A DNA stretch of 64,000 nt from a virus. The stretch is taken from IMG/VR virus record IMGVR_UViG_3300009506_000013, positions 1 to 64,000 of that record, one strand, 5' to 3'. Position numbers and translations under genes: made by a program. The notes under the pieces are model-generated. The model worked only from the letters and a program-made list of their open reading frames with translations. It had not been told where the DNA came from and ran no database searches. Positions 2,904 to 34,104 of the stretch are shown in pieces. The stretch's first letter is position 1. Each line of letters opens with the position of its first letter.

Positions 2904-3356
2904 TCAAGGGTATAATCGCCCACGGATACCCCTAAAAAACCATTTTAGAGCATGTCGTATGTGAAAAAAGGGTAAAATCCGGCCCCTATTCTGGCCCATT
3001 TCGGCTAAAATCCCGGCTATGTCCGGAGATTCCCACCCTTCCGGCTTCAAAATCTTACCATCACCCCGTTTTGGCCCCCCGGTTTTTCGCATATTGGCCC
3101 GGTGGACTTCGGCAAAGAATGGATCCAAATTCACCCCCCACGACACGAAAGATCCCAAGACCACATAAATCAAATCGCATCCCCCGTCGATTGCCGCAGG
3201 CATATCCCTCTGGTCAATCGCCTCCAAAAGCTCCCGGCACTCCTCTTCAATCAAAGACTTTCTCAACTCCACAAATGCAAAGTTGGCTCCATAGCGCTGA
3301 ACCATTAGGCCGAACTTTTCGTGAAACCTTTGGACCTTCCGTTGCCACTTATTCAT
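2904..3356 (-). CDS. MazG-like / PRA-PH family nucleoside triphosphate pyrophosphohydrolase
   Basis: EEECRELLEA...IDGGCDLIYV...EVHRANMRK...GKILKPEGW. Confidence 0.85.
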   Translation of the reverse strand: MNKWQRKVQRFHEKFGLMVQRYGANFAFVELRKSLIEEECRELLEAIDQRDMPAAIDGGCDLIYVVLGSFVSWGVNLDPFFAEVHRANMRKTGGPKRGDGKILKPEGWESPDIAGILAEMGQNRGRILPFFHIRHALKWFFRGIRGRLYP

Positions 3357-3738
3357 CCGACACCCTCTCTTCCATCTCCAGCCATGCCCGCTTCAGATCA
3401 ATCTGATAAGATTCAGCCATAGCAATAATCTGAAGAATAACACACATCATTATTCGGGTTGCGTATTGAACCTGCTCTTCTGGAAGACGGTTTGGAAGCG
3501 TAACAACATCTGCCGCCGCTCCCGCTAACACCTTCTTGTTAAAGTCCATTTCCATACGGTCCAATTTGTGAATAAGAAAATTGCGAACCTTTCCAAAGAT
3601 ATCAGCCCGCTTGGCCTCTTCGAGCTGGCCCAATAAGCGGATCGCACAATTCACCGCACCCTCATCCTGCGAAGGCTCGCCGGGAATATTCGCCATAATA
3701 TAGCTGGCCAATGCGTCAATTTGATCTAAAGCATTCAT
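3349..3738 (-). CDS. hypothetical protein
   Basis: 129 aa ORF with an AAGGAG RBS, overlapping the next gene. Confidence 0.65.
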   Translation of the reverse strand: MNALDQIDALASYIMANIPGEPSQDEGAVNCAIRLLGQLEEAKRADIFGKVRNFLIHKLDRMEMDFNKKVLAGAAADVVTLPNRLPEEQVQYATRIMMCVILQIIAMAESYQIDLKRAWLEMEERVSDE

Positions 3739-3849
3739 GGTGAGACTCCTTATTGAATAGGAGAGGGTGGTGAAGCGGGGAAAGCCTCACCACCCAGGAC
3801 AGCGGTTCACATCCATAAGGAGATGAACCGAACTATATACTAAAATTCA

Positions 3850-19974: not shown

Positions 19975-20239
19975 AATCCTCCTCCGATACCATAACATCT
20001 GTTCCTGAACATATATTAAGATCCTCTACAACTTCCTTCTCTGTAAGTGGCTTCTCTACTCTGGCCCTGATATACGTAGAACCACAGCCTTGGTAGATGA
20101 CCACTCCCGAAAGCATTTGCATATTGGGCGGAAACCAAAAATTGGTATTCGCCGGTAGTGTACCCACCTTAACATAATAAAGGCCATGGTACAAGCTCAC
20201 TGGTGGATTCTTTACTGGGTAACCTTCTTTCTCCTTCAT
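19895..20239 (-). CDS. hypothetical protein
   Basis: GGAGGAG RBS before MKEKEG. Confidence 0.55.
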   Translation of the reverse strand: MKEKEGYPVKNPPVSLYHGLYYVKVGTLPANTNFWFPPNMQMLSGVVIYQGCGSTYIRARVEKPLTEKEVVEDLNICSGTDVMVSEEDYEKTKFPVRARKIHRKPGMEGFPAEP

Positions 20240-20250
20240 GGACTCCTCCA

Positions 20251-21984
20251 TTAGAACGGGCAAGCATCATCACTCACTGCCTTATCCGCATCGACATAAT
20301 CTCTTCCCCAATCGCTCTGGTCGATGGGTCCGCTGTTCGCTCCTTTCCCCAATATAACATCGATGATACTACTTTTCCCGGCCGCAATTTGGGCCAAGAC
20401 AACGTCCATACTATTTTGTAACACGAGATGCGTCACGAGCACCTTATGAGTTTGGCCGATCCGGTGGGAGCGGTCTGCCGCTTGGTTCATCCGCTCTGGC
20501 ACGACATCCTCTTCCACAAACAGCACATGCCATGCGGACGTAAGGTTCAGCCCTACACCCGCCGCCTGTATACTCCCGAAGAAAGGAAGCATTGAAGGAT
20601 CGCCGTTGTATTGGTCGATGATCGGTTGCCGCTTCTTTGCTGGTGTCGGCCCGTATACGAGCGCAGATGGCTGGAACTCCCGGTGTAGCCTCTCCAAGAC
20701 ATGGTGGTGGTGCGCGAATACTAACATCTTATGTGGATCGTCGGTGAGTGTCTCTTTAAGATATTGGATGGCGTATGGGATCTTGAGGTCAGCCAGCTCC
20801 CGCCTCTGCCGGCTATACTCTTCAAAAGAGATGGTAACCTGAGAGTCTAGCTCCCCCACGAGCTTGCGGAACTCCGCCGCATTTCCGGCCTCTCTAGCTG
20901 TTTTTAAGGCCTTCCTGATAGAATCTGTTGCCTTCCGGAAATGATCCACCTCTCTGGCCAGCTCGCGGGCCAATTTTGGGCTTTCTACAGGCACTTCAAG
21001 GATCTGATACCGCTTATCGGGCAGGTCCAGGTCCACCTCATCCTTTGTCCTTCGGATCATCACCGACTTCCGGAGCAATTCCTGAAACTGCTCTTCGTTG
21101 GATGACCCGCTAAAATCCCAGCCATATCCGTTGTGTGTCGCTCCGCAAAACGTCTGCGCAAACCACCAAAAGCTTGGCCAGGACTTCGGATCCAGCCAAT
21201 GGAGCACCCCGAACATCTCCACCGGACGGTTCTCAATCGGCGAACCACTCAGCGCCGATTTATACCGCGCCTTCAAAGGGGCAAAGGCCTCTTCATTTTT
21301 CGGGTTGTCCTTCTTTGGCTCATATCCTAGCACCATCTTGGTCCGCATGGCTTTAGGGTTTTTGATAAATTGAGCCTCATCAGACACAATAAGATCCCAC
21401 GAGACAGAGTCCAGCCGAAACTTATGCCTGTCGAGGATATCATAATTGATGATAATGATTTGAGCTGCTGGCCAATCGCTCCCCCAACAGATCCCGACAC
21501 TCAAAGGCCGGACAAGCCAAGTCTTCAGCTCATTCTCCCAGTTGACCTTGAGACTGGACTTAGTTATGATCAGAACTCTCTCAATAGTAGGATCGGCGTT
21601 GATAAGACCGATAGCCTGGATGGTCTTCCCCAAGCCCATGTCATCGGCGATGTAGCTATTCTTATGTTCTAGCTGCCACTGGATGCCGGCCTTCTGGTAT
21701 CCGAAATACTCTTCACCCTCTGGAGCTGGTAAAGCCCAGTTGGAATCTGTAGCGGATGATTTGGCCAGGTTGGCCTCTCTCTTCTTAATAACATTCGCCA
21801 GCATCTCCCGGCACCGTGGCGTGGCGTATTGGGCTAGTATTGCGGCGTGTTCCGGATTGGTAGTTGCCCAATGGTTGGGCACTATCCGCTTCCAGACAAA
21901 CTGAGCGCCCTTAGGCACTAGGCGCTCAGCATACGCACAATAACAGACAAACGCCTGGTATCGGTCTGAATAATCTAATTTCAT
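20251..21984 (-). CDS. SNF2/HARP-like SF2 helicase
   Basis: ADDMGLGKT, DEAQ, SGSP, GVGLNL, QAADRSHRIGQ. Confidence 0.92.
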   Translation of the reverse strand: MKLDYSDRYQAFVCYCAYAERLVPKGAQFVWKRIVPNHWATTNPEHAAILAQYATPRCREMLANVIKKREANLAKSSATDSNWALPAPEGEEYFGYQKAGIQWQLEHKNSYIADDMGLGKTIQAIGLINADPTIERVLIITKSSLKVNWENELKTWLVRPLSVGICWGSDWPAAQIIIINYDILDRHKFRLDSVSWDLIVSDEAQFIKNPKAMRTKMVLGYEPKKDNPKNEEAFAPLKARYKSALSGSPIENRPVEMFGVLHWLDPKSWPSFWWFAQTFCGATHNGYGWDFSGSSNEEQFQELLRKSVMIRRTKDEVDLDLPDKRYQILEVPVESPKLARELAREVDHFRKATDSIRKALKTAREAGNAAEFRKLVGELDSQVTISFEEYSRQRRELADLKIPYAIQYLKETLTDDPHKMLVFAHHHHVLERLHREFQPSALVYGPTPAKKRQPIIDQYNGDPSMLPFFGSIQAAGVGLNLTSAWHVLFVEEDVVPERMNQAADRSHRIGQTHKVLVTHLVLQNSMDVVLAQIAAGKSSIIDVILGKGANSGPIDQSDWGRDYVDADKAVSDDACPF

Positions 21985-22514
21985 ATGGACATTCTCCTTA
22001 TTAGATTATCCATTCGGCGTAGAACTTCTGTTTGCAGTTTTGGCGGAATGAAATGCTTCTTTACTTCTTGGAACATCTGGCTGCTAAGCCACACACCCTT
22101 CGAGTCCTTTTCCTTCAACAACTGATACTCTTGGAACTCTGCGGCGGTGATGGTTATGCTGTTTGCTACGCGGGCACCCTTCGGTGTTGCCGCCTTCTCC
22201 GCATCATCCTTATTAAAACGGATCGCCGGAGGTGGCTGAACCTCTTCCTTATCAGTCTTCAGGTTCTTAATAAGGAAGTCCACAATACCTTTGACGGATG
22301 GATTGGTGTACTTGTGCCGTTGAAGCCGGCAAGTCCAGGTTACCACCATATCATCCCTGTCGAAAGTAAAGTTCATGTTAATTTGGAGCGGCTCCATTTT
22401 CGCACTCCAGATCCGGTCCCAGTACTGGCCGACAAAATAACCCCGCCGCCCCAGCTCCTTGCGGATCTCTTTTTGCAACCTTGCCTTCTTTTCCCCTTGC
22501 GACATAGGTCCCAT
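21981..22514 (-). CDS. hypothetical protein
   Basis: 177 aa with an AAAGGAGA RBS. Confidence 0.7.
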   Translation of the reverse strand: MGPMSQGEKKARLQKEIRKELGRRGYFVGQYWDRIWSAKMEPLQINMNFTFDRDDMVVTWTCRLQRHKYTNPSVKGIVDFLIKNLKTDKEEVQPPPAIRFNKDDAEKAATPKGARVANSITITAAEFQEYQLLKEKDSKGVWLSSQMFQEVKKHFIPPKLQTEVLRRMDNLIRRMSI

Positions 22515-22704
22515 GTTTATCTCCTTTCGCTGTCCTGTTTGCTAACATCTTATCCCCTAAACTTTGGTGGGGTGAAGGATCGCTGTGCCTTCTTGGAGTT
22601 CACGCAACTCCCTGCCGCCCCACCACCGGCAGAATGCGCTTTCCTAGTCACTCAGGAGAGCACTTTGGCCCTTCGAGCTTTAGGCTCGTCAGGCCCACAA
22701 TTGT

Positions 22705-22777
22705 CTGGACTTGCGACCAGTAGCCCAATCCTCTGGGCTAGCGCATTAAGGCCGGATCGCTCCGGCCCCGCTCTGCT
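22705..22777 (-). ncRNA. twister ribozyme R1 (P5-opened permutation; T1 CGC/GCG variant)
   Basis: AGCA-GAGCG-P1(GGGCCGGA GCGA UCCGGCCU)-UAA-UGC-GCU-P3-A-P4(CUGG UCGCAAGU CCAG). Confidence 0.88.
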
Positions 22778-23090
22778 ATGCTACATCCTCTTCCCACTCC
22801 TCTTCCTCTTCCTTACTGGGGTTGATCCCGGCATTACAGCTCCGGCACAACAGCTCCAGCTCCCCGTTCTCATAGTCCCTCTCATAGCGGACCATCCGTG
22901 ACCACCGGGACAAATCCCGGCAGGACCAATCCCGCCCGTTGGGGTGGTGAAATTCTAACTTCCTTTTTTTACCACACTCTTCACAGCACCCGCCCATCTT
23001 TATGATTAAGGCTTTCCGCCTCAGTTTGTAGGCTTTGACGTGATTCAGAGTTTTTCTTCGGCTCCTTTTCTTCCGGACTTCCTCTGTCAT
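22776..23090 (-). CDS. HNH endonuclease-like small protein
   Basis: CEECG...LEFHH...LLCRSCN; stop codon overlaps R1. Confidence 0.7.
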   Translation of the reverse strand: MTEEVRKKRSRRKTLNHVKAYKLRRKALIIKMGGCCEECGKKRKLEFHHPNGRDWSCRDLSRWSRMVRYERDYENGELELLCRSCNAGINPSKEEEEEWEEDVA

Positions 23091-23147
23091 CTCGTTTCTC
23101 CCTTCCAGTATTTTACCCCAGTTTTTAACTGGATCATAGCTAAAAAT

Positions 23148-23221
23148 CTGGACTTGTGACCAGTGGCCGGGACAACCCCAGCCAGCGCATTAAGGCCGGA
23201 TCGCTCCGGCCCCACTCTGCT
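23148..23221 (-). ncRNA. twister ribozyme R2
   Basis: Full consensus; T1 CAC/GUG. Confidence 0.88.
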
Positions 23222-23279
23222 AATTTTCTATGCCCATAACCTTTTCAATCTGACTCCCCGCTTTCCCCTATCAAACCTC

Positions 23280-23711
23280 CTATCCATATATCCGGTCAGC
23301 CAAGCACTCCCTCCACAACATTTCTGGGATGTCTTCCTTCCGGAAGTATGCTTTGACCCTTGGATCAGTTAATAACAACCCTTCCGCCACATCTGGACAA
23401 GCATCCTGTAATCGGGAATCATCATACCCGTCTGCCTTAAGATCCGCCCGGCACTGGCTACAGATCTTATTCAGCTGGCGCTCTGTATATGGCTTTACCT
23501 TTGGGGCTGAGGTATTCACCTTGAACGGCCTTTCCTTCTCCTTTATCCGGATGTAGTCTGGATATAGGATACCGGCATCGCTTTGTATCCTTATTTTATA
23601 GGCCACAAAACCACCCCGCCTTCCAAGCTCAACCTTCTCCACTACGGTCCCGATTATACAGGTGTTCTTATCTATTCTGAACCGGTCCCTCTTTCCTATC
23701 TTTGCTACCAT
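23280..23711 (-). CDS. hypothetical early protein
   Basis: AAAGGAGA RBS directly after R3. Confidence 0.7.
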   Translation of the reverse strand: MVAKIGKRDRFRIDKNTCIIGTVVEKVELGRRGGFVAYKIRIQSDAGILYPDYIRIKEKERPFKVNTSAPKVKPYTERQLNKICSQCRADLKADGYDDSRLQDACPDVAEGLLLTDPRVKAYFRKEDIPEMLWRECLADRIYG

Positions 23712-23725
23712 TTTGTTTCTCCTTT

Positions 23726-23797
23726 CTGGACTTGCGACCAGTAGCCCAACCGTTGGGCTAGCGCATTAAGGCCAGGTTGCCCTGGCCCCGCTCTGCT
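23726..23797 (-). ncRNA. twister ribozyme R3
   Basis: P1 variant GGCCAGG-GCAA-CCUGGCC; T1 CGC/GCG. Confidence 0.88.
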
Positions 23798-24026
23798 ATA
23801 AGAGTTTTGATAAAGGTGAACGCCGAACACGGACCGCACGAGCGCGGTGTATGAACTGACTACCTTCATACTTCACAATCACCCGTCCGCATCGCCCACA
23901 ATTCGCTACACGAGAGGCAGGCATACTACCAACATCCACCCGGTTTTTCTGCCCACAGTAGGGGCACTGCCGGATCTTAATACATTCCATGTTAGTATCC
24001 TCCACCAGAAGCACATTTTGGACCAA
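23796..24026 (-). CDS. Zn-ribbon protein (thioredoxin-2 N-terminal-like CxxC...CGRC)
   Basis: CPYCGQKNRV...CGRCG; stop codon overlaps R3. Confidence 0.6.
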   Translation of the reverse strand: MVQNVLLVEDTNMECIKIRQCPYCGQKNRVDVGSMPASRVANCGRCGRVIVKYEGSQFIHRARAVRVRRSPLSKLL

Positions 24027-24432
24027 TCCCGGCCTTTACAGACTCCGGAGTTGTTAACAACCTACCACATACGCAGCACCGCCCGCAGTGATAGAAGTTG
24101 ATCTTGGTTGGTATAGAACCTTTAATCAAGTGACCGTACCACCACCGGAAGGCAACAGCCGCTTTCGAGTCTTCGCTCATCTTCTTTTTAGAGTGGCGAT
24201 ATTCGCCGCCCTTAATAAGACCCATGAATGAATAATCGGAAGTGTTGTCCGGACCTCGAAGCAAGCTGACCCAAAACAGATCCTCTTCCTCAGTCTTTAT
24301 TGCCTTTGATATCCGATAGGTGAAACGATTCCCGGTGTCAGGATTCTCAATGGTAAAATAAGCATTCCCGCCAAAGATGAATTTTTTCTGCTCCTCTATT
24401 TCGAAGAGCTGGGCAATCGGTAGAGGCTCCAC
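23992..24432 (-). CDS. DUF6011-like Zn-finger protein
   Basis: C-terminal CCVCGRLLTTPESVKAGIGPKC. Confidence 0.75.
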   Translation of the reverse strand: MEPLPIAQLFEIEEQKKFIFGGNAYFTIENPDTGNRFTYRISKAIKTEEEDLFWVSLLRGPDNTSDYSFMGLIKGGEYRHSKKKMSEDSKAAVAFRWWYGHLIKGSIPTKINFYHCGRCCVCGRLLTTPESVKAGIGPKCASGGGY

Positions 24433-24647
24433 TAGTCACCTCCCAGTTCATCATCTGCGAACAGACCATCATCTGCGAACAGACCATCATCATCGTCATG
24501 GTCTTCAACATCGCCCACGCCAAACTGATCGCGAATTGCATCCTGTAACGGGTTTTTACAGCGCCCGCAAATAGCAGTCTGAACCTTCGCCTCATCCACT
24601 CTATTCTTCACCTGACACGCATCGCACTTAACAGTCATATTATCCAT
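24432..24647 (-). CDS. Zn-ribbon protein with acidic tail
   Basis: CDACQVKNRV...CGRC and a DDGLFA tandem repeat; start reassigned to MDNM after the RBS following R4. Confidence 0.65.
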   Translation of the reverse strand: MDNMTVKCDACQVKNRVDEAKVQTAICGRCKNPLQDAIRDQFGVGDVEDHDDDDGLFADDGLFADDELGGD

Positions 24648-24663
24648 TTTTATCTCCTTTATA

Positions 24664-24734
24664 CCAGACTTGTGACTGGTCTTGGGACAATCCCAAGGCG
24701 CATTAAGGCCGGATCGCTCCGGCCCCACTCTGCT
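24664..24734 (-). ncRNA. twister ribozyme R4
   Basis: P4 shows a compensatory swap (CCAG...CUGG instead of CUGG...CCAG). Confidence 0.88.
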
Positions 24735-25072
24735 TATAGGTTGTTTAGTTCTGCTTCGGTAGCGGTGATGGCTTCCCGGTCAGGATTATCAGCCATCAAC
24801 TGCCTTTCGAGCTTGGCCTTAAGGTTCTTCAGATCCGTGGAATAACCACCCGCCTGTAACGAACTCATGAACAGCCGGACATTGGACAGAAAGAACTCAC
24901 CCGTGCGGCCCCGGTCATCGACTGCCTGAACCTTTACCACTCCCTCTTCAATCCAAGCCGCCACGATCCTTGCGGGCCACGCTACCTTGTAGTCATTAAA
25001 AGCATGTTCGATCCGCCACGCCGGACAGATGAACTGTTCTAAAAGGTTGTTTGATAATGATCCTCGTGCCAT
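24734..25072 (-). CDS. hypothetical early protein
   Basis: AAGGAGA RBS; stop codon overlaps R4. Confidence 0.7.
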   Translation of the reverse strand: MARGSLSNNLLEQFICPAWRIEHAFNDYKVAWPARIVAAWIEEGVVKVQAVDDRGRTGEFFLSNVRLFMSSLQAGGYSTDLKNLKAKLERQLMADNPDREAITATEAELNNL

Positions 25073-25091
25073 TTTGTTTCTCCTTATTAGT

Positions 25092-25142
25092 CTGAACTTG
25101 TGACCAACGAATGGGGCCAGGGAAGCCTGACCCCGCTCTGCT
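25092..25142 (-). ncRNA. degenerate twister-like copy R5
   Basis: Keeps AGCAGAGCG, a P1-like hairpin and UGGUCACAAGUUCAG; lacks the UAA cleavage loop and P3. Confidence 0.55.
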
Positions 25143-25350
25143 AGCTGTCTTCCCTGCGTTCTGCTTCCCGCAGGTCATCGGCCATATTAACAATGTTCTC
25201 GCACAGTTCAATCAGCTTATCCCGATATTCCTTTTCAGACTTACTGATATCATGATCCGGCCCCTCTTCAATAGCTTCTTCAATAGCCGATTCACAATCA
25301 AGTAAATCACGATAGGTGTTCTCAAATCGACAATAGCTCATATTGCTCAT
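25141..25350 (-). CDS. small acidic phage protein (MSYCRFENT type)
   Basis: Start reassigned to MSNMSYCRFENT after the AGGAGA RBS. Confidence 0.75.
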   Translation of the reverse strand: MSNMSYCRFENTYRDLLDCESAIEEAIEEGPDHDISKSEKEYRDKLIELCENIVNMADDLREAERREDS

Positions 25351-25366
25351 TTTCTTATCTCCTATT

Positions 25367-25440
25367 CTGGACTTGTGACCAGTAGCCTCCACCATAGAGG
25401 CTAGCGCATTAAGGCCGGATCGCTCCGGCCCCACTCTGCT
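25367..25440 (-). ncRNA. twister ribozyme R6
   Basis: Full consensus; P3 AGCCUC..GAGGCU. Confidence 0.88.
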
Positions 25441-25963
25441 AGATGATAGGCTTCACTCTATTCGCCCACACCGTGATAAGATCCTTGGGTGCACGGCCAG
25501 TGATACGGGCCAGATGACCACCAAAGGCCAGGTCCAACATTTTCTTCGGGTTGAGTACAGTTACCTTCCCGGTGGTCTTATTAATCCGAACCACCTGGGA
25601 CTTTGACCACATCCCATTACTCAGGACTTCAACCATCTGCCCAACCCGCAACCTCTCTATATAGCCAAAGTTTTTAAGGTATTCAGCAGCCTTCTCTTTG
25701 TGCTCTTCGCGGTGAGCTTGGCGCTCCTCCTTGAATTCATTTCCTGCCGCATACAGCACTTTTCTCTGCTTCGGCGTCAACTTCGCGGGTTTCAACATAT
25801 GCTCTGGAACAGTGTACATTCCTTCCTCTTCCGATTTTACTTCAAAACGATAGACAACAGGCTGATATCGCTTACTGACTTTCCGCATCCCCATAACTAC
25901 TCCAACAACCGTCTTGTGTTTGCGGGAAGATGTAAACTGAACTGCGTCACCGATATTAAACAT
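25439..25963 (-). CDS. hypothetical protein with SH3/KOW-like beta-barrel patterns
   Basis: FNIGDAVQF and LRVGQMVEV patterns; RBS after R7. Confidence 0.7.
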   Translation of the reverse strand: MFNIGDAVQFTSSRKHKTVVGVVMGMRKVSKRYQPVVYRFEVKSEEEGMYTVPEHMLKPAKLTPKQRKVLYAAGNEFKEERQAHREEHKEKAAEYLKNFGYIERLRVGQMVEVLSNGMWSKSQVVRINKTTGKVTVLNPKKMLDLAFGGHLARITGRAPKDLITVWANRVKPII

Positions 25964-25977
25964 GGTATTTCTCCTTT

Positions 25978-26051
25978 CTGGACTTGCGACCAGTAGACTC
26001 CACCATGGAGTCTAGCGCATTAAGGCCGGATCGCTCCGGCCCCGCTCTGCT
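25978..26051 (-). ncRNA. twister ribozyme R7
   Basis: T1 CGC/GCG; P3 AGACUCC..GGAGUCU. Confidence 0.88.
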
Positions 26052-26334
26052 AGTCTTCTTTACACTCAGGATAATCAACCGCTTTAAATACAGGGAACGT
26101 CCGCTGAGTCACGGCATTCTGGACTTCCTTTAAAACACTAAACAGAGCCTCAAGCTCTTGCTCCTGTTCCTTACCACGAACACGGATTTCACAGTTAAAA
26201 CAAGCCTCACCGTTGCTTCCTGATACTTGAAGCTCCCCGCGATAGCCATACACCAGACTTAACAGGCCCTTCACATGTTCCACAATTTGGGCATCTGTCG
26301 CTTCTGTTACCGTCTCAACCGAATAGTCTTTCAT
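26050..26334 (-). CDS. hypothetical early protein
   Basis: RBS after R8; stop codon overlaps R7. Confidence 0.7.
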   Translation of the reverse strand: MKDYSVETVTEATDAQIVEHVKGLLSLVYGYRGELQVSGSNGEACFNCEIRVRGKEQEQELEALFSVLKEVQNAVTQRTFPVFKAVDYPECKED

Positions 26335-26352
26335 TTCTTATCTCCTTTTATT

Positions 26353-26424
26353 CTGGACTTGTGACCAGTGGCTCCCCCATGGAGCCAGCGCATTAAGGCC
26401 GGATCGCTCCGGCCCCACTCTGCT
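26353..26424 (-). ncRNA. twister ribozyme R8
   Basis: Full consensus; P3 GGCUCC..GGAGCC. Confidence 0.88.
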
Positions 26425-26632
26425 AAGATGCCCGCTGAAGGATTATCTCTCTTGCCTCTATAGCGCGGACATTGGTTATCTCGTTTTGTAGCTCTAAAAG
26501 ATACGTTTGCTCAACTCCTGAAGCCTCCGCATAGTTCATCAGGCCTTGGATATAGGCTTCGTAAACACGGACCATCCGTTTCAGAGTCTTCTCTTCCTCT
26601 ACCACTATTCTCTTCACGTTGTTATTAGCCAT
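26423..26632 (-). CDS. small helical hypothetical protein
   Basis: RBS after R9; stop codon overlaps R8. Confidence 0.7.
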   Translation of the reverse strand: MANNNVKRIVVEEEKTLKRMVRVYEAYIQGLMNYAEASGVEQTYLLELQNEITNVRAIEAREIILQRAS

Positions 26633-26644
26633 TTCTTTTCTCCT

Positions 26645-26722
26645 CTGGACTTGTGACCAGTACCAGGGACAATCCCCGGTAGCGCATTAAGCTGGAGTCT
26701 TAAGACTCCAGCCCACTCTGCT
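26645..26722 (-). ncRNA. twister ribozyme R9 (P1 overlaps coding sequence)
   Basis: P1 is GGCUGGAGUCU/AGACUCCAGCU, a different sequence that still pairs fully. Confidence 0.85.
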
Positions 26723-27149
26723 GTAGCGTCCAGATAGCAACTAAATCAGCCATCCGGCTTGACTCTTCCATAGTCAACAGCCCATCCGCAAACATCCTTT
26801 CCCATTTGCGAAACGCAGGGCCGTGACCCTCGTCAGCGCCATCCTTATACTTGCCCAGCCGAACGGGTTGGGCACTGTTGCAAATAAACCCGTGGACCAG
26901 CTCGTGCCACAGGATGCTTCGGACCTCTTTCAAATACCGCCCATATTTGAGCGGCTTTTCAAAGAACTTATTCAGGGCGATTGTCCGGGCCGCAACGTCA
27001 TACTGACCGAAGACCACGCCCGGCAACCCGGCCTGATTAACTGTTATTGGGAACTGCTGGAAGGATACTTTCACCACACAGCCGGAGCCATTCAAGTATC
27101 CTTCATCCATCTCCTTCACCAACTGGAAAAGCAAAGATTCTATTTGCAT
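26700..27149 (-). CDS. SprT-like zinc metalloprotease
   Basis: HELVH (HExxH) and downstream GHGPAFRK. Confidence 0.8.
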   Translation of the reverse strand: MQIESLLFQLVKEMDEGYLNGSGCVVKVSFQQFPITVNQAGLPGVVFGQYDVAARTIALNKFFEKPLKYGRYLKEVRSILWHELVHGFICNSAQPVRLGKYKDGADEGHGPAFRKWERMFADGLLTMEESSRMADLVAIWTLQQSGLES

Positions 27150-27802
27150 CGCGCATACCCTGCCTTCCCGCCGATTTTAACCTTGCGGATAATTCCAAGT
27201 CTCACAAGGTGCCCAGCGACCATCTTCAAACGGCCAGCTGGATTCGAGCTTTTAATGTTGGGAATGAGTTCAGCAATAGCGTCATCCAGTGTAATAGAAG
27301 GATATTTGACCAGTAATTCCGCGCAAAACCTTATAGAGGTATTTGGCAACCAGGCCGGAAGACCATCCGGACCAATCGGAGGTATTGCGGAAGTCCCACC
27401 ACCCGTCTTGGCCTTCTTTGCTTTCGCCGTTGACGTTGTAGTAGTCTGTTTGTTTTCGAGCTTATCAATATAAGATTGGATCTGCGGCGGATTCAGCGCC
27501 ACCGCAAACCGTTCCATATACTTCAAAGCCATCCGCAAACTTGTTTCCTTCTCTTCCGGAAACTGTGTGCCCAAGGCGCGGGCACGGCATTTACCTGCGA
27601 TGTTCCAGATTTTAACAGCATCATCGGGCAGGTACTTCACACCGGGATTCTGTCGCTGTAATCTCTGAAGACTCCCACAAATCGGGTCCATCACGGATAT
27701 CGCCTGGATTAATAGGCTTGTCCGAAGACTTAAGTCATCGTGGGCACGGGAAAATGCCGCGTAAATCTTTTCAATCATTTTCCTTGGATTTGCTTTCGCC
27801 AT
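27140..27802 (-). CDS. hypothetical early protein
   Basis: 220 aa with an RBS after R10; overlaps the SprT-like gene. Confidence 0.7.
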   Translation of the reverse strand: MAKANPRKMIEKIYAAFSRAHDDLSLRTSLLIQAISVMDPICGSLQRLQRQNPGVKYLPDDAVKIWNIAGKCRARALGTQFPEEKETSLRMALKYMERFAVALNPPQIQSYIDKLENKQTTTTSTAKAKKAKTGGGTSAIPPIGPDGLPAWLPNTSIRFCAELLVKYPSITLDDAIAELIPNIKSSNPAGRLKMVAGHLVRLGIIRKVKIGGKAGYARCK

Positions 27803-27814
27803 TTCTTTTCTCCT

Positions 27815-27888
27815 CTGGACTTGTGACCAGTGGCCGGGACAACCCCGACCAGCGCATTAAGGCCGGATCGCTCCGGCCCCACTCTGCT
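27815..27888 (-). ncRNA. twister ribozyme R10
   Basis: Full consensus. Confidence 0.88.
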
Positions 27889-28607
27889 TATTCGCTCCCC
27901 GTCCCCAACAGCGGACGGTTCGCAACCGCAAGAAATTTCGCCTCAAACTCAGCCTCACTCGTGATCTCCTCATGAACTCCCCCGGTGATTGCGCTCAGGG
28001 TTTTGAGGTTATCACTACCATTTCGGCCATACCAGCTGTCTTCGCGGCCAATAAAAATGGTGTCAATAATAACGCCAGCCGTTTTGGCTTGTTCGGCGGC
28101 ATCGAGGGCAACATCATAGTCATGCATATCGCCATCCGATGTAAGGATAATTCTGGGCGTATAATCTTTGTTCTTCTTCAGAAGAGTCAACGCCGCACGG
28201 ATACCCTTTCCAGCATAAGTCCCGTTTCCATTCGCATACAGCGCACGAACAGCATCCTTGATCTCATCCAGGTTCGATGAGCCTCTCAGAGGTATTCGAG
28301 TGTTTTTCCCGAACTCAACAACGCCAATCTTCATGGACAGGGCCTTTTCGCCAATCCGTTCATTCGCATACTTCTCAACAACCTTCTTTTGAAGGTCAAC
28401 CTTCCGTGAACCGCTGTAGCGGTCTTCGCCCATCCCATCATTCATCGAATAGGAAGCATCCAACACGAAACAGAGATATTGGAAATTATCAAAGAAGTCA
28501 TTCAGATCCATACTACCAGCACTCAGGATCAAATCCTCTTCTTTTTTCGTCATGGAAGTTGCGGTTGTTACGATAGAAGTGTTTTTGGAAGTTTTGTTAT
28601 CAGACAT
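27888..28607 (-). CDS. von Willebrand factor A domain protein
   Basis: MIDAS DASYSM, GT, ILTSDG; start reassigned to MSDNK after the RBS. Confidence 0.85.
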   Translation of the reverse strand: MSDNKTSKNTSIVTTATSMTKKEEDLILSAGSMDLNDFFDNFQYLCFVLDASYSMNDGMGEDRYSGSRKVDLQKKVVEKYANERIGEKALSMKIGVVEFGKNTRIPLRGSSNLDEIKDAVRALYANGNGTYAGKGIRAALTLLKKNKDYTPRIILTSDGDMHDYDVALDAAEQAKTAGVIIDTIFIGREDSWYGRNGSDNLKTLSAITGGVHEEITSEAEFEAKFLAVANRPLLGTGSE

Positions 28608-28628
28608 GGTATTTCTCCTTTTTAAAAA

Positions 28629-28703
28629 CTGGACTTGTGACCAGTTAGATTCCACCATGGAATCTAGCGCATTAAGGCCGGATCGCTCCGGCCCCACTCT
28701 GCT
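28629..28703 (-). ncRNA. twister ribozyme R11
   Basis: Full consensus; P3 AGAUUCC..GGAAUCU. Confidence 0.88.
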
Positions 28704-28893
28704 AATTTTCTATCCAAGCAACGCTTTTCGCATTCAATAGTTCCAGTCTCACCTCTTCCAGCATTTGGATATCGGCCTCGTGTTTCCTCTTGCTTCGAGC
28801 TGAGAAAGAAAGTTTGTCAATCCGGTCTTGGATAGCGTCAACCACCGCCAACTGCTGGCGGATACTCAGAAAGTGTACCATTAAGTCTTTCAT
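28702..28893 (-). CDS. small hypothetical protein
   Basis: RBS after R12; stop codon overlaps R11. Confidence 0.7.
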   Translation of the reverse strand: MKDLMVHFLSIRQQLAVVDAIQDRIDKLSFSARSKRKHEADIQMLEEVRLELLNAKSVAWIEN

Positions 28894-28905
28894 TTTTTAT
28901 CTCCT

Positions 28906-28979
28906 CTGGACTTGTGACCAGTGGCCGGGACAACCCCAGCCAGCGCATTAAGGCCGGATCGCTCCGGCCCCACTCTGCT
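28906..28979 (-). ncRNA. twister ribozyme R12
   Basis: Identical to R2 and R15. Confidence 0.88.
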
Positions 28980-29278
28980 TAAGGCTCATAAAATCTAACA
29001 TCGAAATCATTACAAGCCCTCATGAAATCCAGTATCGTCATCGTGTCAGATAACCGGCGCAGGAAGGCATAACCGTTCATTCCTTCCACCGTAGAATACT
29101 GGTCAAGATCATTCTCGTAGATATGGACGCCATTGGCGTCAACCACGATCCCATAAGCCTTCTCAACATCTTGCGAGATTAGAACCAACCCGACCAACGG
29201 ATCAGAACCATCACCAAAACTCTCAGCACTCGAAAAGGCATCCCAATCTTGCTTATCAAACTTTCTAAGATTAATCAT
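28979..29278 (-). CDS. hypothetical early protein
   Basis: RBS after R13; stop codon overlaps R12. Confidence 0.7.
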   Translation of the reverse strand: MINLRKFDKQDWDAFSSAESFGDGSDPLVGLVLISQDVEKAYGIVVDANGVHIYENDLDQYSTVEGMNGYAFLRRLSDTMTILDFMRACNDFDVRFYEP

Positions 29279-29290
29279 TTTGTTTCTCCT

Positions 29291-29364
29291 CTGGACTTGT
29301 GACCAGTAGCCTCCACCATAGAGGCTAGCGCATTAAGGCCGGATCGCTCCGGCCCCACTCTGCT
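29291..29364 (-). ncRNA. twister ribozyme R13
   Basis: Identical to R6. Confidence 0.88.
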
Positions 29365-29614
29365 AGTCTTCCAACTCATCCAACCCATCGAGGCAAGCCT
29401 CAACTTCATACAACCGCTGAGCCTCTTTCGCGGATATCTTCACGGAGGAAACAACCAGCCAGTTGTTATCGTCCAAGACATCCCCAACCTGTGTAACCAC
29501 GGGGCAATTCTTTCCATCGAACACTTTCTTCATGGCGGCATTTAACTCATCCACCGGAATTTGATCTGCCCAATCCCAAAATATTAACTCAGTCTTTACT
29601 GTGTTCTTTTTCAT
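29363..29614 (-). CDS. hypothetical early protein
   Basis: Start reassigned to MKKNTV after the GAGGAGA RBS. Confidence 0.7.
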   Translation of the reverse strand: MKKNTVKTELIFWDWADQIPVDELNAAMKKVFDGKNCPVVTQVGDVLDDNNWLVVSSVKISAKEAQRLYEVEACLDGLDELED

Positions 29615-29627
29615 TTTCTTTTCTCCT

Positions 29628-29699
29628 CTGGACTTGTGACCAGTGGCTCCCCCATGGAGCCAGCGCATTAAGGCCGGATCGCTCCGGCCCCACTCTGCT
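29628..29699 (-). ncRNA. twister ribozyme R14
   Basis: Identical to R8. Confidence 0.88.
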
Positions 29700-29931
29700 A
29701 ACCGTTCCAAACCTCAACGCCAGTAACCGTCACTTTCATATTAATTCCGGCATCGGCCACGAACTTTTTGACCAGTTCCTTCGCAACATCCTTGTTTCGA
29801 GCCTCCACAAGGATCTCATCCAGCGTATCCACGCAACCGCCAAGAATATAGGTACAACGGTATTTTTTCGGCGTGACCTTATGGTGTGGTTGCCGACGCA
29901 TCGAAGTCCCCCATCCATTGTTTCTTCCCAT
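29698..29931 (-). CDS. hypothetical early protein
   Basis: Start reassigned to MGRNNG after the RBS. Confidence 0.7.
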   Translation of the reverse strand: MGRNNGWGTSMRRQPHHKVTPKKYRCTYILGGCVDTLDEILVEARNKDVAKELVKKFVADAGINMKVTVTGVEVWNG

Positions 29932-29947
29932 TTTCTTATCTCCTATT

Positions 29948-30021
29948 CTGGACTTGTGACCAGTGGCCGGGACAACCCCAGCCAGCGCATTAAGGCCGGA
30001 TCGCTCCGGCCCCACTCTGCT
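29948..30021 (-). ncRNA. twister ribozyme R15
   Basis: Identical to R2 and R12. Confidence 0.88.
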
Positions 30022-30223
30022 AGTAACAATCTATTCCTTTCACCACGCATCCGGTGTTCAGGCCCTTTACCTCTTCAACCAGCGCCTCCCAGTACTTTCT
30101 AGCTGGCGCCTCTCTTTTATATTTACGGTTCCAACTCTCAAACGCGGGCCTGCGATTAAGAGTACAAAAAATCTCAAAGCCATCTTTGGTTTCGAAAAAC
30201 GAAATTCTAATTGTATCGCTCAT
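30020..30223 (-). CDS. hypothetical early protein (first gene of the array)
   Basis: Start reassigned to MSDTIR after the RBS. Confidence 0.7.
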   Translation of the reverse strand: MSDTIRISFFETKDGFEIFCTLNRRPAFESWNRKYKREAPARKYWEALVEEVKGLNTGCVVKGIDCY

Positions 30224-30235
30224 GGTGTTTCTCCT

Positions 30236-30314
30236 CTGGACTTGTGACCAGTAGCCCAACCGCTGGGCTAGCGCATTAAACGGATGGCAATGCACTTACC
30301 ATCCGCCACTCTGC
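30236..30314 (-). ncRNA. twister ribozyme R16 (5'-most copy)
   Basis: Unique P1 GCGGAUGGUAA/UUGCCAUCCGU; the rest matches consensus. Confidence 0.85.
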
Positions 30315-30847
30315 AAATTTTGGAGAATTTTCCGATCTCTTTTAGCAAAATACCGTATCGGTCACCCGCGACAATCGAATCACACTCGATTACTGAGCCA
30401 CCCCGCTCAATTGGGACTTGCGATATTTCACCGTCTGTTTCACCGGGTGTCTTATCCACCCTGCCCACAACCTACTTTGTTCAGCTCTGGGTCCGCCTCA
30501 CCTCCTCCGGATTTTAGCGGTAGCACCTTGGGCTCCCCGTTTTTCGGATCTTTGCCATCAGGTCTGGCCTTTTGTTTTTTCTCCGGTGGCCTTCGATTTT
30601 CATCAACCGGATTTTCCGCTGGCTCCTTCGGTTCCGCCTTCGGTCGGCTTCTTTAATTCCGCTCCCCCTGACCTTGGGCTTTCCCTTCCGCCTTTCTTTT
30701 TCGCCCTTCCGGTTTCCCCCAGTCATGCCGATGTCGGCCTCAGTTGGGTTCCACGTTTATAGGGTGTACCGCTTTTCGCTTCCCCGCCCCCCCTTTCTTC
30801 TTTCTACTCTATTTAACTTTATCATCTTACCTTATCCTTTCTTACTG
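30315..30847 (-). ncRNA. putative ~530 nt structured leader or ncRNA
   Basis: Lies between the promoter and R16; purine-rich, many short hairpins, no convincing RBS-led ORF. Confidence 0.35.
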
Positions 30848-30853
30848 TACTTA

Positions 30854-30914
30854 AATATAATGGAAAATGAAGGGATAGTCTACATTTTTTTTAACTTTTT
30901 TTGATTTTTTTTTT
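30854..30914 (-). promoter_or_regulatory. strong sigma70-type early promoter with UP element
   Basis: -35 TAGACT (30877-30882), 17 bp spacer, -10 TATATT (30854-30859), upstream A-tracts. Confidence 0.75.
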
Positions 30915-30973
30915 AAGTGGAGGAAAATCAATCATTTATGAGGACGATTTTTTTGTTTTTTCCGGCATTTAGG

Positions 30974-31228
30974 CTATTTTTTACCCCCATCAACTGCTAA
31001 TTTCCTATGCTTTTTTGATGGTCTTCCCCGGTGTAAATTCCGGGCTTTTAGGGCCAGCACCTGCCGCATATCGTACAGCCGAATATGGCCATCATCGAAC
31101 ACAGGCACCAAATACCCCTTTAAAACATGGCTATCGATGGCGCTTGCTGAACAGCCGTATATCTCTGCCGCAGTCTTCCGGCTCACCAGCCGATTAATAT
31201 CAAACATCCTTCTCTTGAATCTCCTCAC
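30974..31228 (-). CDS. helix-turn-helix DNA-binding protein (excisionase/MerR-like)
   Basis: LVSRKTAAEIYGCS...G.L......RLY pattern. Confidence 0.7.
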   Translation of the reverse strand: MRRFKRRMFDINRLVSRKTAAEIYGCSASAIDSHVLKGYLVPVFDDGHIRLYDMRQVLALKARNLHRGRPSKKHRKLAVDGGKK

Positions 31229-32097
31229 CTCAAAGCCTCCAAAATCTCCCGCTCATCCGTTTCAGCTGGATCCTTCCCCGATACCTGAACAATCCTGATC
31301 GGCCTTCGATGAAAGGATAACAGCTGTCTCATTTTTAACGCATCCAATTCCGCTTCCCGGTCCAGCATCACCACGAACCGGTCAAAGCCGGATACCAACG
31401 CCAATTTCTCGTGGCTGAGAACCTTCCCGCCGATAGCGACAGCCGCCCAATCAGCAAACATTCTATCATGCGCCAACGCACGATCAACCGCCAACTTATC
31501 GGCCCAACCTTCTACAAGCACCAAGGTGGAGGCGATGCCTGCCGCCTGGTCATAACCAAACAGCGCCTCAGCTGCCTTCGCTCCTACAGGGTGAAGAACC
31601 TTCCGCTCAGCTCTTCCTGTCCAATCCCGCGCAACGAAGCTCACCAACTCCCCGTCCAGCGTAATGGGTATTATCACCCTGTTTCTATATCTCCCAGTCG
31701 GACAAAATCCTATGGAATATTTTTGAATCTGGCCTACTGTGATCCTCCGGCCCAGCAGGTAGCGCATGGCTATCCCGGCAATAATACCGCGCCGGGGGAG
31801 TGCGAAATATTCCGAAGGCAAGCAAACATCCTTCTCTTTCTCCGGCTTCCACATTCCTCCCGGCAACTCGCCGGAAAGCATCCGCGCCTCACGGTAGCTG
31901 ATACGATTTAGCTTTACAAACAGCCCTGCTAACCGGCCCCGCTTCCCGCAACCGTGGCAGATGTAAACTTTCTTCCGTACATTAACGCAACAAGACGGTG
32001 TGCGCTCGTTGTGCCACGGGCAGAGTATGGTCCATTCTCCTCCTCCACTATGGCGTGCGTTTGGCTGTCCTGCGATAATCCGCTCTGCTTGATTCAT
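31225..32097 (-). CDS. DNA primase (CHC2 zinc finger plus TOPRIM)
   Basis: CPWH..RTPS...CHGCG, RVIIPI, VEG..D, D.E, KDP. Confidence 0.9.
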   Translation of the reverse strand: MNQAERIIAGQPNARHSGGGEWTILCPWHNERTPSCCVNVRKKVYICHGCGKRGRLAGLFVKLNRISYREARMLSGELPGGMWKPEKEKDVCLPSEYFALPRRGIIAGIAMRYLLGRRITVGQIQKYSIGFCPTGRYRNRVIIPITLDGELVSFVARDWTGRAERKVLHPVGAKAAEALFGYDQAAGIASTLVLVEGWADKLAVDRALAHDRMFADWAAVAIGGKVLSHEKLALVSGFDRFVVMLDREAELDALKMRQLLSFHRRPIRIVQVSGKDPAETDEREILEALR

Positions 32098-33455
32098 GGC
32101 TGTGCCTGATTCTGGGCGTAGGCCACCCCATCACTTAATCGCATCTCATGGAGACAGAATTGCATCCGCGAAAAATCCTGCTTCAGTAAGATGTCTCCAA
32201 CCTTCTGGCCAGCCGGTCCATGCCAATAACCATCTACATATAACCGCATTTCGTTGTTGTCATACTCCTCTGGCGTTTGGTTTAATGTAAGAATCAAGGA
32301 GGAGTGCTGGGCTGGCATCGAGCTTTCCTGTCCATCCTCCATATAGATCCGGAATTGTTTCCGCCTTTTTAATGGTGTCTGCTGGGCGGTAATGAGCACA
32401 ACATTCTCCCGTTGGGCCACGGCACGGGCGGTTGTGAATATCTCATCCCGCGAAGCTCTCATCCAAGCATCCCCGCCCCGCACTGAACTCTTCATCAGCT
32501 CCCCATAATCAACAATCACCACATCTATCCGCACCCCATCGCGGGCCAGCTGCTGGATATCGTTTTGAAGATCCTGGGGAGAGTAGGTCCGCGCCATCCG
32601 CCATAGGATATACAGCTTGGATTTGAACAGCTCTTTTAGATAACCAATTTGGTTTCCTAATTTGTCCATGAACGGCGTCAGCTCATCCTTTTCCATATTC
32701 GAGAACATGGAGTCATAGCGATCCTCTACCATCGCCCTCGAATTTTCCAGGCTGACATGGAGCACGTTGTGCCCTTGTAGAATTGCGCACTTGCCGGCGT
32801 GTTGTAAAAAGATGGACTTGCCCCGCTTGCTTGGCGCTATACAAAGACAGATCTCATCCCGGTGCGCAAATATTCCGTACTTCTCCAGCGTAGGAACCAT
32901 GAAACGGACTCCATCCTTTGACTTCGATTCCAGAATGCGCCGGAGTATGCGCTTGTTCACTGTTGTAAAATATTCTACAGGCCTCTCCAAATCATCCTTC
33001 TGGATCGCCTGTGCCCTGCTTACTGCTTCCGCCGCCGCATCTATATTCCCGGCCTCGATAGCTTCCCCCAATTCAATCTGAAGCCTCTTCAACTTCGCGA
33101 ACTGAAAGAACCTTTCGAGCTTTTGGGATATGTAGTATGCGTTGGTTGGTTCTTGAACAAGCTCAGCGCCTTTTCCTTTTAGAAGCTTGACGCGTGACTC
33201 ATTCATCCGCTCATCTTCGGCGGCATCCTGTATATAGGACAAGAACATGTCCTTGGCCACGAGGCCAGATTGGTCATAATAACGTCTTGCTAATTCTGCT
33301 AATGTAATGCGGAGTGTATCCCCGAATAGATCTGGGCTTAATAGTTGGCCATACTTCCTCATGAACTTAACATCAGTCAGCATCAAAGTCAGTACACCAT
33401 CGACAAACCCTTCGTCAAACCCTCTAAACGTGTCGCGTGTGTACTGTGTGGCCAT
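32094..33455 (-). CDS. DnaB-like replicative helicase
   Basis: APSKRGKS Walker A, SLE, VIVDY, TAQQ. Confidence 0.88.
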   Translation of the reverse strand: MATQYTRDTFRGFDEGFVDGVLTLMLTDVKFMRKYGQLLSPDLFGDTLRITLAELARRYYDQSGLVAKDMFLSYIQDAAEDERMNESRVKLLKGKGAELVQEPTNAYYISQKLERFFQFAKLKRLQIELGEAIEAGNIDAAAEAVSRAQAIQKDDLERPVEYFTTVNKRILRRILESKSKDGVRFMVPTLEKYGIFAHRDEICLCIAPSKRGKSIFLQHAGKCAILQGHNVLHVSLENSRAMVEDRYDSMFSNMEKDELTPFMDKLGNQIGYLKELFKSKLYILWRMARTYSPQDLQNDIQQLARDGVRIDVVIVDYGELMKSSVRGGDAWMRASRDEIFTTARAVAQRENVVLITAQQTPLKRRKQFRIYMEDGQESSMPAQHSSLILTLNQTPEEYDNNEMRLYVDGYWHGPAGQKVGDILLKQDFSRMQFCLHEMRLSDGVAYAQNQAQP

Positions 33456-34104
33456 TCCTTCTCCTCAAGAATTTGCTCTTCTCTTCATAGAATATACGCT
33501 CACGGATGAGCTTCTCTCTCTCGTGCTTTGGCATGCTATCGAATACAAACTTTGGCATTCCGGCTACCGGCTTATTTGCATCCACCACTGCCATGCTGGC
33601 CTTCCGCTGGGCGTATTGGCGGGCTTGCTCTTCTAATTGTATTGGGAGTCTATGTTGGCGGGCAAGTTCTTGGATGCGGCGGGCGGATGCTTCCTGATTG
33701 GCTAGCTCTTGCTTTCTCTTTTCGGCATCCCCGTTGTATAGCTCTTGGCTGAGAAATTCCGTATACCGCATTTCAGCCTTCGCTCCGCATAGATGATGGG
33801 GGAGCGGGCGATGCCGGCTATATTGAACGAACCATAGAAAGTTGTGCTCAACAAAATCCGTCAAACTCCAGCTCCGCATCCTACACAAAGCAATTATCCT
33901 CTTCATAGAGGTAAGCTCAGCCTTGGTTGTTCCTATGCGGATATATGTGGTATGGTAGTGCTTCTTATAAAGGTCAAACAATATCTCTTTAAGGTTTTGA
34001 ACCTCGAACTCCATGACCCTCTTTTCGATTATCTTTAAAAGCTCTTCTGGCTCTGGTGGTACGGGCGGTGTGCGGTTCGGTATCCAGTTCCATAACATAG
34101 GCAT
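33424..34104 (-). CDS. hypothetical protein (replication module)
   Basis: 226 aa with an AAGGAGA RBS; overlaps the helicase. Confidence 0.65.
   Translation of the reverse strand: MPMLWNWIPNRTPPVPPEPEELLKIIEKRVMEFEVQNLKEILFDLYKKHYHTTYIRIGTTKAELTSMKRIIALCRMRSWSLTDFVEHNFLWFVQYSRHRPLPHHLCGAKAEMRYTEFLSQELYNGDAEKRKQELANQEASARRIQELARQHRLPIQLEEQARQYAQRKASMAVVDANKPVAGMPKFVFDSMPKHEREKLIRERIFYEEKSKFLRRRNGHTVHTRHV

Follow-up and report, generated by a model that had tools for sequence, protein, structure and literature searches.

The analysed stretch of DNA (the window) comprises 64,000 nucleotides (nt) and corresponds to positions 1 to 64,000 of the IMG/VR virus record IMGVR_UViG_3300009506_000013. The source record has 81,032 bases and a CheckV completeness of 100%, shows no end repeats, and originates from an uncultivated tailed phage of 81 kb from marine sediment. 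All long open reading frames (ORFs) of the window are located on the minus strand. Between 22705 and 30315 (-), 16 copies of a twister ribozyme and 18 small ORFs are arranged in an array of 7.6 kb. According to PHROGs matches, this array sits in the replication region, with a primase gene (31228-32097) and a DnaB-like helicase gene (32097-33455) upstream, and a second helicase gene (20254-21984) and a DNA polymerase gene (11643-15428) downstream, so that primase and helicase genes border it on either side. Tail and head genes lie still further upstream. No tRNA or tmRNA genes were found in the window by ARAGORN. Copy numbers ascend along the plus strand from R1 (22705) to R16 (30236), and transcription runs from R16 to R1. 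We consider it probable that the array consists of 15 intact and one decayed type-P5 twister ribozymes, whose fold is kept by selection and which cut one long accessory-gene transcript into single-gene mRNAs.

Ribozyme identity was assigned with Rfam. A scan of the whole window at the gathering score gave 14 matches, all of them Twister-P5 (RF02684), on the minus strand and with 44.6-51.4 bits against a cut-off of 37.6 (range given, 22705-29699). With a permissive scan of 20000-34000, R16 (30236-30315) was recovered in addition; at 37.4 bits it remains 0.2 below the cut-off, and other Rfam families gave no match in the same interval at E-values (E) up to 1. The entire 81-kb record contains 15 Rfam Twister-P5 matches and no further ones, and the same search had no match in any of 14 control genomes. 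The decayed copy, R5 (25092-25142), surfaced in a pattern search; it has no Rfam match and reaches 19.8 bits with a covariance model built here, which brings the tally to 15 intact copies and one decayed copy.

All Rfam matches cover model positions 1-58, and the best family within the clan is Twister-P5. The copies have the circular permutation of the P5 type, with ends that open between P4 and P2 and with P1 closed by a loop. They are contiguous, 71-80 nt long when intact, and without exception placed on the coding strand. Elements follow in the same order as in RF02684 (P2 3' strand, GAG-N-G, hairpin P1, UAA, P2 5' strand, GC, optional P3, and P4 with loop UC-N-CAAG), with the same pseudoknots T1 and T2 and the same U-A site; all strongly conserved model positions are matched and no structural difference was seen. 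GCAGAG, UUAAUGCGC and GUC-N-CAAGU are unchanged in 15 of 15 intact copies and agree with the upper-case model consensus. Local features of the array are the presence of P3 in all intact copies, G-U as the outer T2 pair, and the accumulation of 16 copies in one 7.6-kb operon. The array thus represents a known ribozyme class and no new kind of element. The P5 permutation is reported together with the twister class (Roth 2014 as cited in PMC10085705), and the class of Roth et al. 2014 is also cited in PMC6154101.

The copies are listed in order of transcription; T1 denotes the middle pair of this pseudoknot, and U(-1) the predicted position.

R16, 30236-30315 (-): T1 U-A; own P1 CGGAUGG/CCAUCCG; one extra U before the UAA site; predicted U(-1) 30278; 37.4 bits with Rfam, 56.3 bits with own model
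R15, 29948-30021 (-): consensus copy, identical to R12 and R2; T1 U-A; predicted U(-1) 29992
R14, 29628-29699 (-): identical to R8; T1 U-A; predicted U(-1) 29670
R13, 29291-29364 (-): identical to R6; T1 U-A; predicted U(-1) 29335
R12, 28906-28979 (-): identical to R2 and R15; T1 U-A; predicted U(-1) 28950
R11, 28629-28703 (-): T1 U-A; own P3; predicted U(-1) 28674
R10, 27815-27888 (-): T1 U-A; P3 as in R15 with a CU to UC swap, pairing held via G-U; predicted U(-1) 27859
R9, 26645-26722 (-): T1 U-A; own P1 CUGGAGUC/GACUCCAG; predicted U(-1) 26689
R8, 26353-26424 (-): identical to R14; T1 U-A; predicted U(-1) 26395
R7, 25978-26051 (-): T1 C-G; three differences from the U-A copies R6, R11 and R13; predicted U(-1) 26022
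R6, 25367-25440 (-): identical to R13; T1 U-A; predicted U(-1) 25411
R5, 25092-25142 (-): decayed; retains GCAGAGCG, a 9-pair hairpin and GUCACAAG; T1 letters C opposite A
R4, 24664-24734 (-): T1 U-A; swapped P4 CCAG/CUGG; short P3; predicted U(-1) 24705
R3, 23726-23797 (-): T1 C-G; own P1 CCAGG/CCUGG; predicted U(-1) 23768
R2, 23148-23221 (-): identical to R12 and R15; T1 U-A; predicted U(-1) 23192; 58 nt separate it from the upstream ORF; not directly followed by a ribosome-binding site
R1, 22705-22777 (-): last copy; T1 C-G; predicted U(-1) 22748; followed by a structured leader of 190 nt

Base pairing was counted in a covariance-model-based alignment (A4) of the 15 intact copies, which contribute 11 distinct rows because R2, R12 and R15, R8 and R14, and R6 and R13 are identical. 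A stricter cut-off was used to drop partial hits. MAFFT alignments were set aside, as the longer P1 of R16 and several P3 arms were misplaced in them. Helices P2, P1, P3 and P4 were treated as nested and T1 (G-Y-G with C-R-C) and T2 (GC with GU) as pseudoknots, which resulted in 28 pairs and 303 cells. Since T1 and T2 are absent from the covariance model, the alignment could not be bent toward them. Pair counts were judged by 500 shuffles and by sliding the 3' partners by 1-3 columns.

In A4, standard pairs were present in 303 of 303 cells (shuffled mean 84.1%) and both-side changes in 17 of 28 pairs (shuffled mean 7.4), and none of the 500 shuffles was as high in either count. When the 3' partner was slid by 1-3 columns, paired cells dropped to 29-43%. 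Both-side changes affected 7 of 8 pairs in P1, 7 of 8 in P3 and 2 of 4 in P4, while P2 was invariant. The two T2 pairs are likewise invariant in the window, the outer one being G-U. The three T1 pairs are always formed, with a middle pair that is U-A in 8 and C-G in 3 distinct rows (12 and 3 copies, respectively). Unconstrained minimum-energy folds of R15, R7, R9 and R16 yielded the same nested helices, with z-scores of -3.7 to -4.9.

The original prediction had described these variants from the letters alone, and its observations were recovered throughout. R1, R3 and R7 carry GAGCG together with the P4 loop GUCGCAAG, both in the printed sequences and in A4, and the other 12 intact copies carry GAGUG together with GUCACAAG. 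P4 of R4 is swapped (CCAG/CUGG versus CUGG/CCAG in the rest), and two P4 pairs are altered on both sides. P1 occurs in four paired versions (consensus, R3, R9 and R16), with 7 of 8 P1 pairs altered on both sides. For P3, the 15 copies have 11 different sequences, each of them paired. GAG, UAA and CAAG are invariant in 15 of 15 intact copies.

Three copies with C-G in the middle of T1 do not represent three events, as the copies are paralogues. Outside the T1 columns, R7 has only 3 differences from the U-A copies R6, R11 and R13, as against 11 from R1 and 14 from R3. R1 and R3 differ from each other at 10 positions and have a P3 type in common, which is also that of the U-A copy R16. Because R7 is near to U-A copies and far from R1 and R3, the simplest history would include at least two independent switches from U-A to C-G; a less simple alternative is an exchange that moved both copy ends but not the middle. 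A U-G intermediate at the middle T1 pair was not present among the 15 intact copies. The chance that three C's meet three G's is 1 in 455 arrangements, or 1 in 165 if only distinct rows are used.

The decayed copy R5 is devoid of the UAA site, the P2 5' strand and P3, and to judge from its letters cleavage is not expected. Its C opposite A in T1 would fit relaxed selection after loss of the cleavage site. R5 retains a GC-rich hairpin of 9 pairs and the layout of stop codon and ribosome-binding site, and its neighbouring genes would share a unit of 706 nt.

Relatives of the array were searched in other phages. With a strict pattern, the phage record G002 (67 kb, 84% complete) had 11 Twister-P5 matches within 5.7 kb, and three additional records had one match each. 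Of the 18 ORFs of the present array, 6 have homologues enclosed by the G002 array, with 32-53% amino-acid identity, and the G002 copies have a different P1, P3 and P4 (e.g. P4 CCGG/CCGG) and the same unpaired core. The twister fold has thus outlasted most of the surrounding protein sequence. Gene order and ribozyme positions differ between the two phages. In G002 (L020, G002:C1:18500-27500, 2987-4235), a twister separates the g and h homologues, whereas here (26700-27802) ORFs g and h overlap without one, which points to gain or loss of ribozymes at single junctions.

A looser pattern, in which the middle T1 letters were left free, matched at least 119 IMG/VR stretches. In 122 distinct sequences among the matches listed, these letters were T-A 72, G-C 37, A-T 5, C-G 1, T-G 1, C-A 3 and A-A 3 times, i.e. 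they were paired in 116 of 122, where independence (estimated by hand from the marginals) would give about half. A model search of the window and of 99 of 139 loci then provided 127 matches, the 107 distinct ones of which were aligned for pair counts. In these 107 rows, 97.7% of 2641 cells were paired compared to 66.2% after shuffling (0 of 500 as high), with 96.4-99.7% pairing per helix. T1 was paired in 99.7%, with both-side changes in 3 of 3 pairs, and its middle pair was UA 54, GC 44, CG 5, AU 2 and UG 1 times and in no row unpaired. T2 was paired in 93.0%, with both-side changes in 2 of 2 pairs, and its outer pair was GC 37, AU 33, GU 29, CG 6 and other 2 times. In pair counts with shuffles, T1 and T2 hence covary once the intact copies are aligned with their homologues. 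That compensatory changes among the copies reflect selection on the RNA fold including the pseudoknot, as had been proposed, is borne out by the array counts, the array of the related phage and the 107 distinct rows alike. The view of the element as a folded single strand is equally supported, the fold being the known twister fold. Purifying selection on this fold has left its mark in the matched changes, among them the switch of the middle T1 pair from U-A to C-G.

In 12 of 16 copies, ribozyme positions 1-2 are shared with the stop codon of the upstream ORF (UAG-CAGAG or UA-AGCAGAG), and a ribosome-binding site of the GGAG type follows within approximately 10 nt after P4 in 14 of 16. R16 has no ORF directly upstream, and it alone among the copies lacks an ORF that ends where the ribozyme starts. 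Two gene pairs without a ribozyme in between overlap (27140-27802 / 26700-27149 and 24432-24647 / 23992-24432). Flanks were inspected by eye for a P5 stem, and no consistent complementarity was found between them. In a consensus scan compared with shuffles, neither promoter-like sites (10 versus 9.4 expected) nor terminator-like sites (6 versus 11.4 expected) were in excess.

Twisters are described as cleaving rapidly at a U-A step, leaving a 2',3'-cyclic phosphate and a 5'-OH (PMC6154101 and PMC8782182). In the proposed mechanism, each copy folds into P2, hairpin-closed P1, P3 and P4, and the P4 loop docks back onto GAGYG (T1) and onto the GC after P2 (T2). By the chemistry of the family, a freshly transcribed copy would then cleave itself at the U-A step of UUAAUGC, and the long accessory transcript from primase to helicase would be divided into 14 units of 276-1170 nt. 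A unit would start with a 5'-OH, AAUGCGC and the P3 and P4 hairpins, followed by the ribosome-binding site; the stop codon, GCAGAGYGG and the P1 hairpin would make up its 3' end, which would carry a 2',3'-cyclic phosphate. Stability and translation of such single-gene mRNAs would be uncoupled from those of their neighbours, and host RNases would not be needed. We infer that ends of this kind protect the mRNAs and uncouple the genes; cutting of the long message into single-gene mRNAs would be the most likely role of the array.

Alternatively, the halves of two neighbouring copies might act together. A cleaved unit carries P2a, T2, P3 and P4 at its 5' end and P2b, GAGYG and P1 of the next copy at its 3' end, and might re-form a twister across the ORF, whereupon ribozyme reversal or host RtcB would join the ends to give a circular mRNA. 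We regard this as unlikely. It is in keeping with the P5 permutation, which gives each unit complementary halves, and with P2 and T2 being identical in all copies; in G002, T1 and T2 are uniform and all units would be compatible. RtcB circularises twister-flanked RNAs in the synthetic Tornado system (PMC7324948), and successive cleavage and ligation was raised as a possibility for tandem hammerheads by Perreault et al. (PMC3088659). Tornado RNAs resemble the units proposed here in that twister-flanked RNA is released with 5'-OH and 2',3'-cyclic phosphate; in contrast, Tornado is engineered and RtcB-dependent, T1 is unmatched across 5 of 14 units of the present array, and no RtcB or RNA-ligase family match was obtained in the 81-kb phage record, in place of which a host enzyme could still act.

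The T1 letters argue for the contiguous copy as the active unit, as the original prediction had held. When both letters are taken from the same copy, all 15 intact copies have a Watson-Crick middle T1 pair. Between the loop of one copy and GAGYG of the next intact copy downstream (n = 14), it would be Watson-Crick in 9, G-U in 2 and A-C in 3 cases (p = 0.017, Fisher's test on Watson-Crick only), so that 9 of 14 units could re-form a perfect T1, and an A-C mismatch would lie in the middle of a 3-pair T1 in 3 of them. As P1 is a closed hairpin, both strands of the scissile U-A loop should belong to one copy, judging by the sequence, and the two models would differ only in the P4 loop that docks on the scissile-site loop. 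The comparison was extended to nine other arrays with variation in T1 or T2 (L024, L039, L047, L064, L078, L086, L094, L104 and L115). L117 was left out, as its four copies share their T1 and T2 letters with those of L078 and it is probably the same phage in a sister sample. Varying positions were Watson-Crick in 47, wobble in 1 and mismatched in 6 of 54 cases within a copy, and Watson-Crick in 19, wobble in 5 and mismatched in 12 of 36 cases against the next copy. Thus, T1 and T2 letters track the copy and not the unit, here as well as in the nine other arrays. Two adjacent twisters of L094 (3615-3677 and 4415-4472, both -) are the clearest single case for contiguous folding: one T2 pair and two T1 pairs distinguish them, and either copy is fully self-matched and mismatched to the other. 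That released units later self-close as natural circular phage mRNAs, in which case the C-G variants of T1 would mark units kept linear, is quite unlikely in our estimation, but T1 would still match in 9 of 14 units here and in all units of G002.

The repeats might instead act mainly as DNA joints for the recombination of gene cassettes, with paired variants kept by templated palindrome repair or by gene conversion. The three sets of identical copies are interspersed with unrelated ORFs, and gene order and ribozyme positions are unlike those in G002, including the twister between g and h, which speaks for such joints. Recombination at the repeats may well happen; however, it does not explain the covariation pattern. 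T1 and T2 covary over approximately 58 nt and 34 nt, respectively, and are not arms of one palindrome, the invariant unpaired letters are exactly those of the twister core, all copies are placed on the coding strand, and the decayed R5 has lost T1 complementarity, which together make joints as the main function very unlikely. Highly improbable, finally, are folded RNAs that no longer cleave and serve as hairpin insulators or protective structures between cistrons: P1, P3 and P4 are strong hairpins in folds of -37 to -40 kcal/mol, R5 has kept its 9-pair hairpin, and self-cleavage of the array is a prediction, but the core letters required by the family model, with the U-A site among them, do not vary across the 15 copies or the relatives, and a hairpin role alone would conserve neither core letters nor T1 and T2.

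Several points nevertheless weigh against cutting of the transcript by a selected ribozyme fold. Self-cleavage is deduced from family membership only, and R16 may be inactive owing to the extra U beside its cleavage site. 5'-OH ends are handled differently among bacteria, and such an end can reportedly destabilise and not protect an RNA, as with glmS and RNase J1 in Bacillus. Counts of the nested helices come from alignments fitted to the structure, in the window set as in the set of relatives, and the copies are paralogues with three identical sets, by which cells are not independent events. Within the window, the T1 evidence consists of one pair in three copies and of at least two events. 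In relatives, copies matched by the looser pattern had their outer two T1 pairs prescribed; further copies found by the model at the same loci were unconstrained. The contrast within versus across copies is modest, since G-U wobbles would make up half of the mis-pairings between copies. The two T1 halves of R7 are joined by the original assembly alone, with no spanning piece among 20 of 51 pieces listed from Logan contigs.

These contigs were used as an independent assembly check. They break inside the repeated ribozymes, and cassette order cannot be confirmed from them. Among the 20 of 51 pieces listed, whole copies are covered for R3, R1 (in a contig of another study), R9 and R5. A search of sequencing runs for the array returned no RNA runs and three DNA runs, of which two were from marine sediment (one study) and one was from soil with a small share. 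Contigs from a different study, a soil metagenome of 2024, are identical to 22645-22795, 23925-24075, 24969-25233 and 26897-27107; the word share of this sample is only 0.08, and the best holders are the marine-sediment runs.

Both the architecture and the class are known, and the array provides new members in an arrangement that was already described for phages. The twister fold, both pseudoknots and the loss of activity upon their mutation are established, with four crystal structures (PMC6154101); the novelty of the reading was thus overstated, as T1 and T2 were already recognised features of twisters. Perreault et al. 2011 reported tandem hammerheads that flank prophage genes, proposed that they process long phage transcripts into gene-length mRNAs, and found three tandem arrangements to cleave in vitro (PMC3088659). 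As in that case, several ribozymes of a self-cleaving type flank single phage genes or short blocks here; unlike there, the ribozymes belong to another class and number 16 and not two or three. A 2019 review restates the idea of polycistronic processing for twister (PMC6765202), and the biological reason for ribozyme-punctuated phage operons is still described as unknown in PMC10085705. Beyond PMC3088659, PMC6765202, PMC10085705 and PMC6154101, no paper on twister arrays in phage genomes was found in the literature searched, which lies mostly outside subscription journals.

The array can be regarded as a natural mutational experiment, in which 11 distinct ribozyme versions occur in one transcript and every helix and T1 are kept in each. 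Its variants could be used directly to test fold and activity, and the twister fold itself gains nothing new. Its wider value is that of one more large and regular ribozyme-punctuated phage operon. Comparing T1 within a copy with T1 across to the next one provides a simple test from sequence. The contrast argues that the contiguous ribozyme is under selection, as opposed to a gene-spanning fold, and bears on the idea of circular mRNAs.

Array ORFs were compared with Pfam and PHROGs. A VWA domain was found at 27891-28607, DUF6011 and phrog_20259 at 23995-24432, and phrog_8760 at 25144-25350, in addition to weak matches to SprT-like, zinc-ribbon and HNH families. In Pfam and PHROGs, 10 of the 18 array ORFs had no match, and the matches imply no function for the array. 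The SprT-like ORF at 26700-27149 (-) is without the usual stop at the first ribozyme letters; its reading frame continues for 7 codons inside R9, up to a UAA in the P1 loop. Because R9 also has its own P1, coding and ribozyme constraints overlap here.

Upstream of the array, approximately 900 nt (30316-31224, -) separate the primase gene from R16, and the only ORFs there encode a very basic product of 70 amino acids (30514-30726) and one of 84 amino acids (30974-31228). The array promoter may lie in this region. Downstream, a gap of 190 nt (22515-22704, -) extends from R1 to the next ORF (21981-22514). It gave no Rfam family at E up to 1 and folds with a z-score of -2.15. A hammerhead ribozyme was considered because of the words CUGACGAG...CGAA at approximately 22665-22695, and was rejected, as 20000-34000 contains no Rfam hammerhead match at E up to 1 and the region folds as a simple two-stem hairpin. 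The gap starts with this hairpin and additionally contains a long-range pairing of GGUGGUGGGG with CCCCACC.

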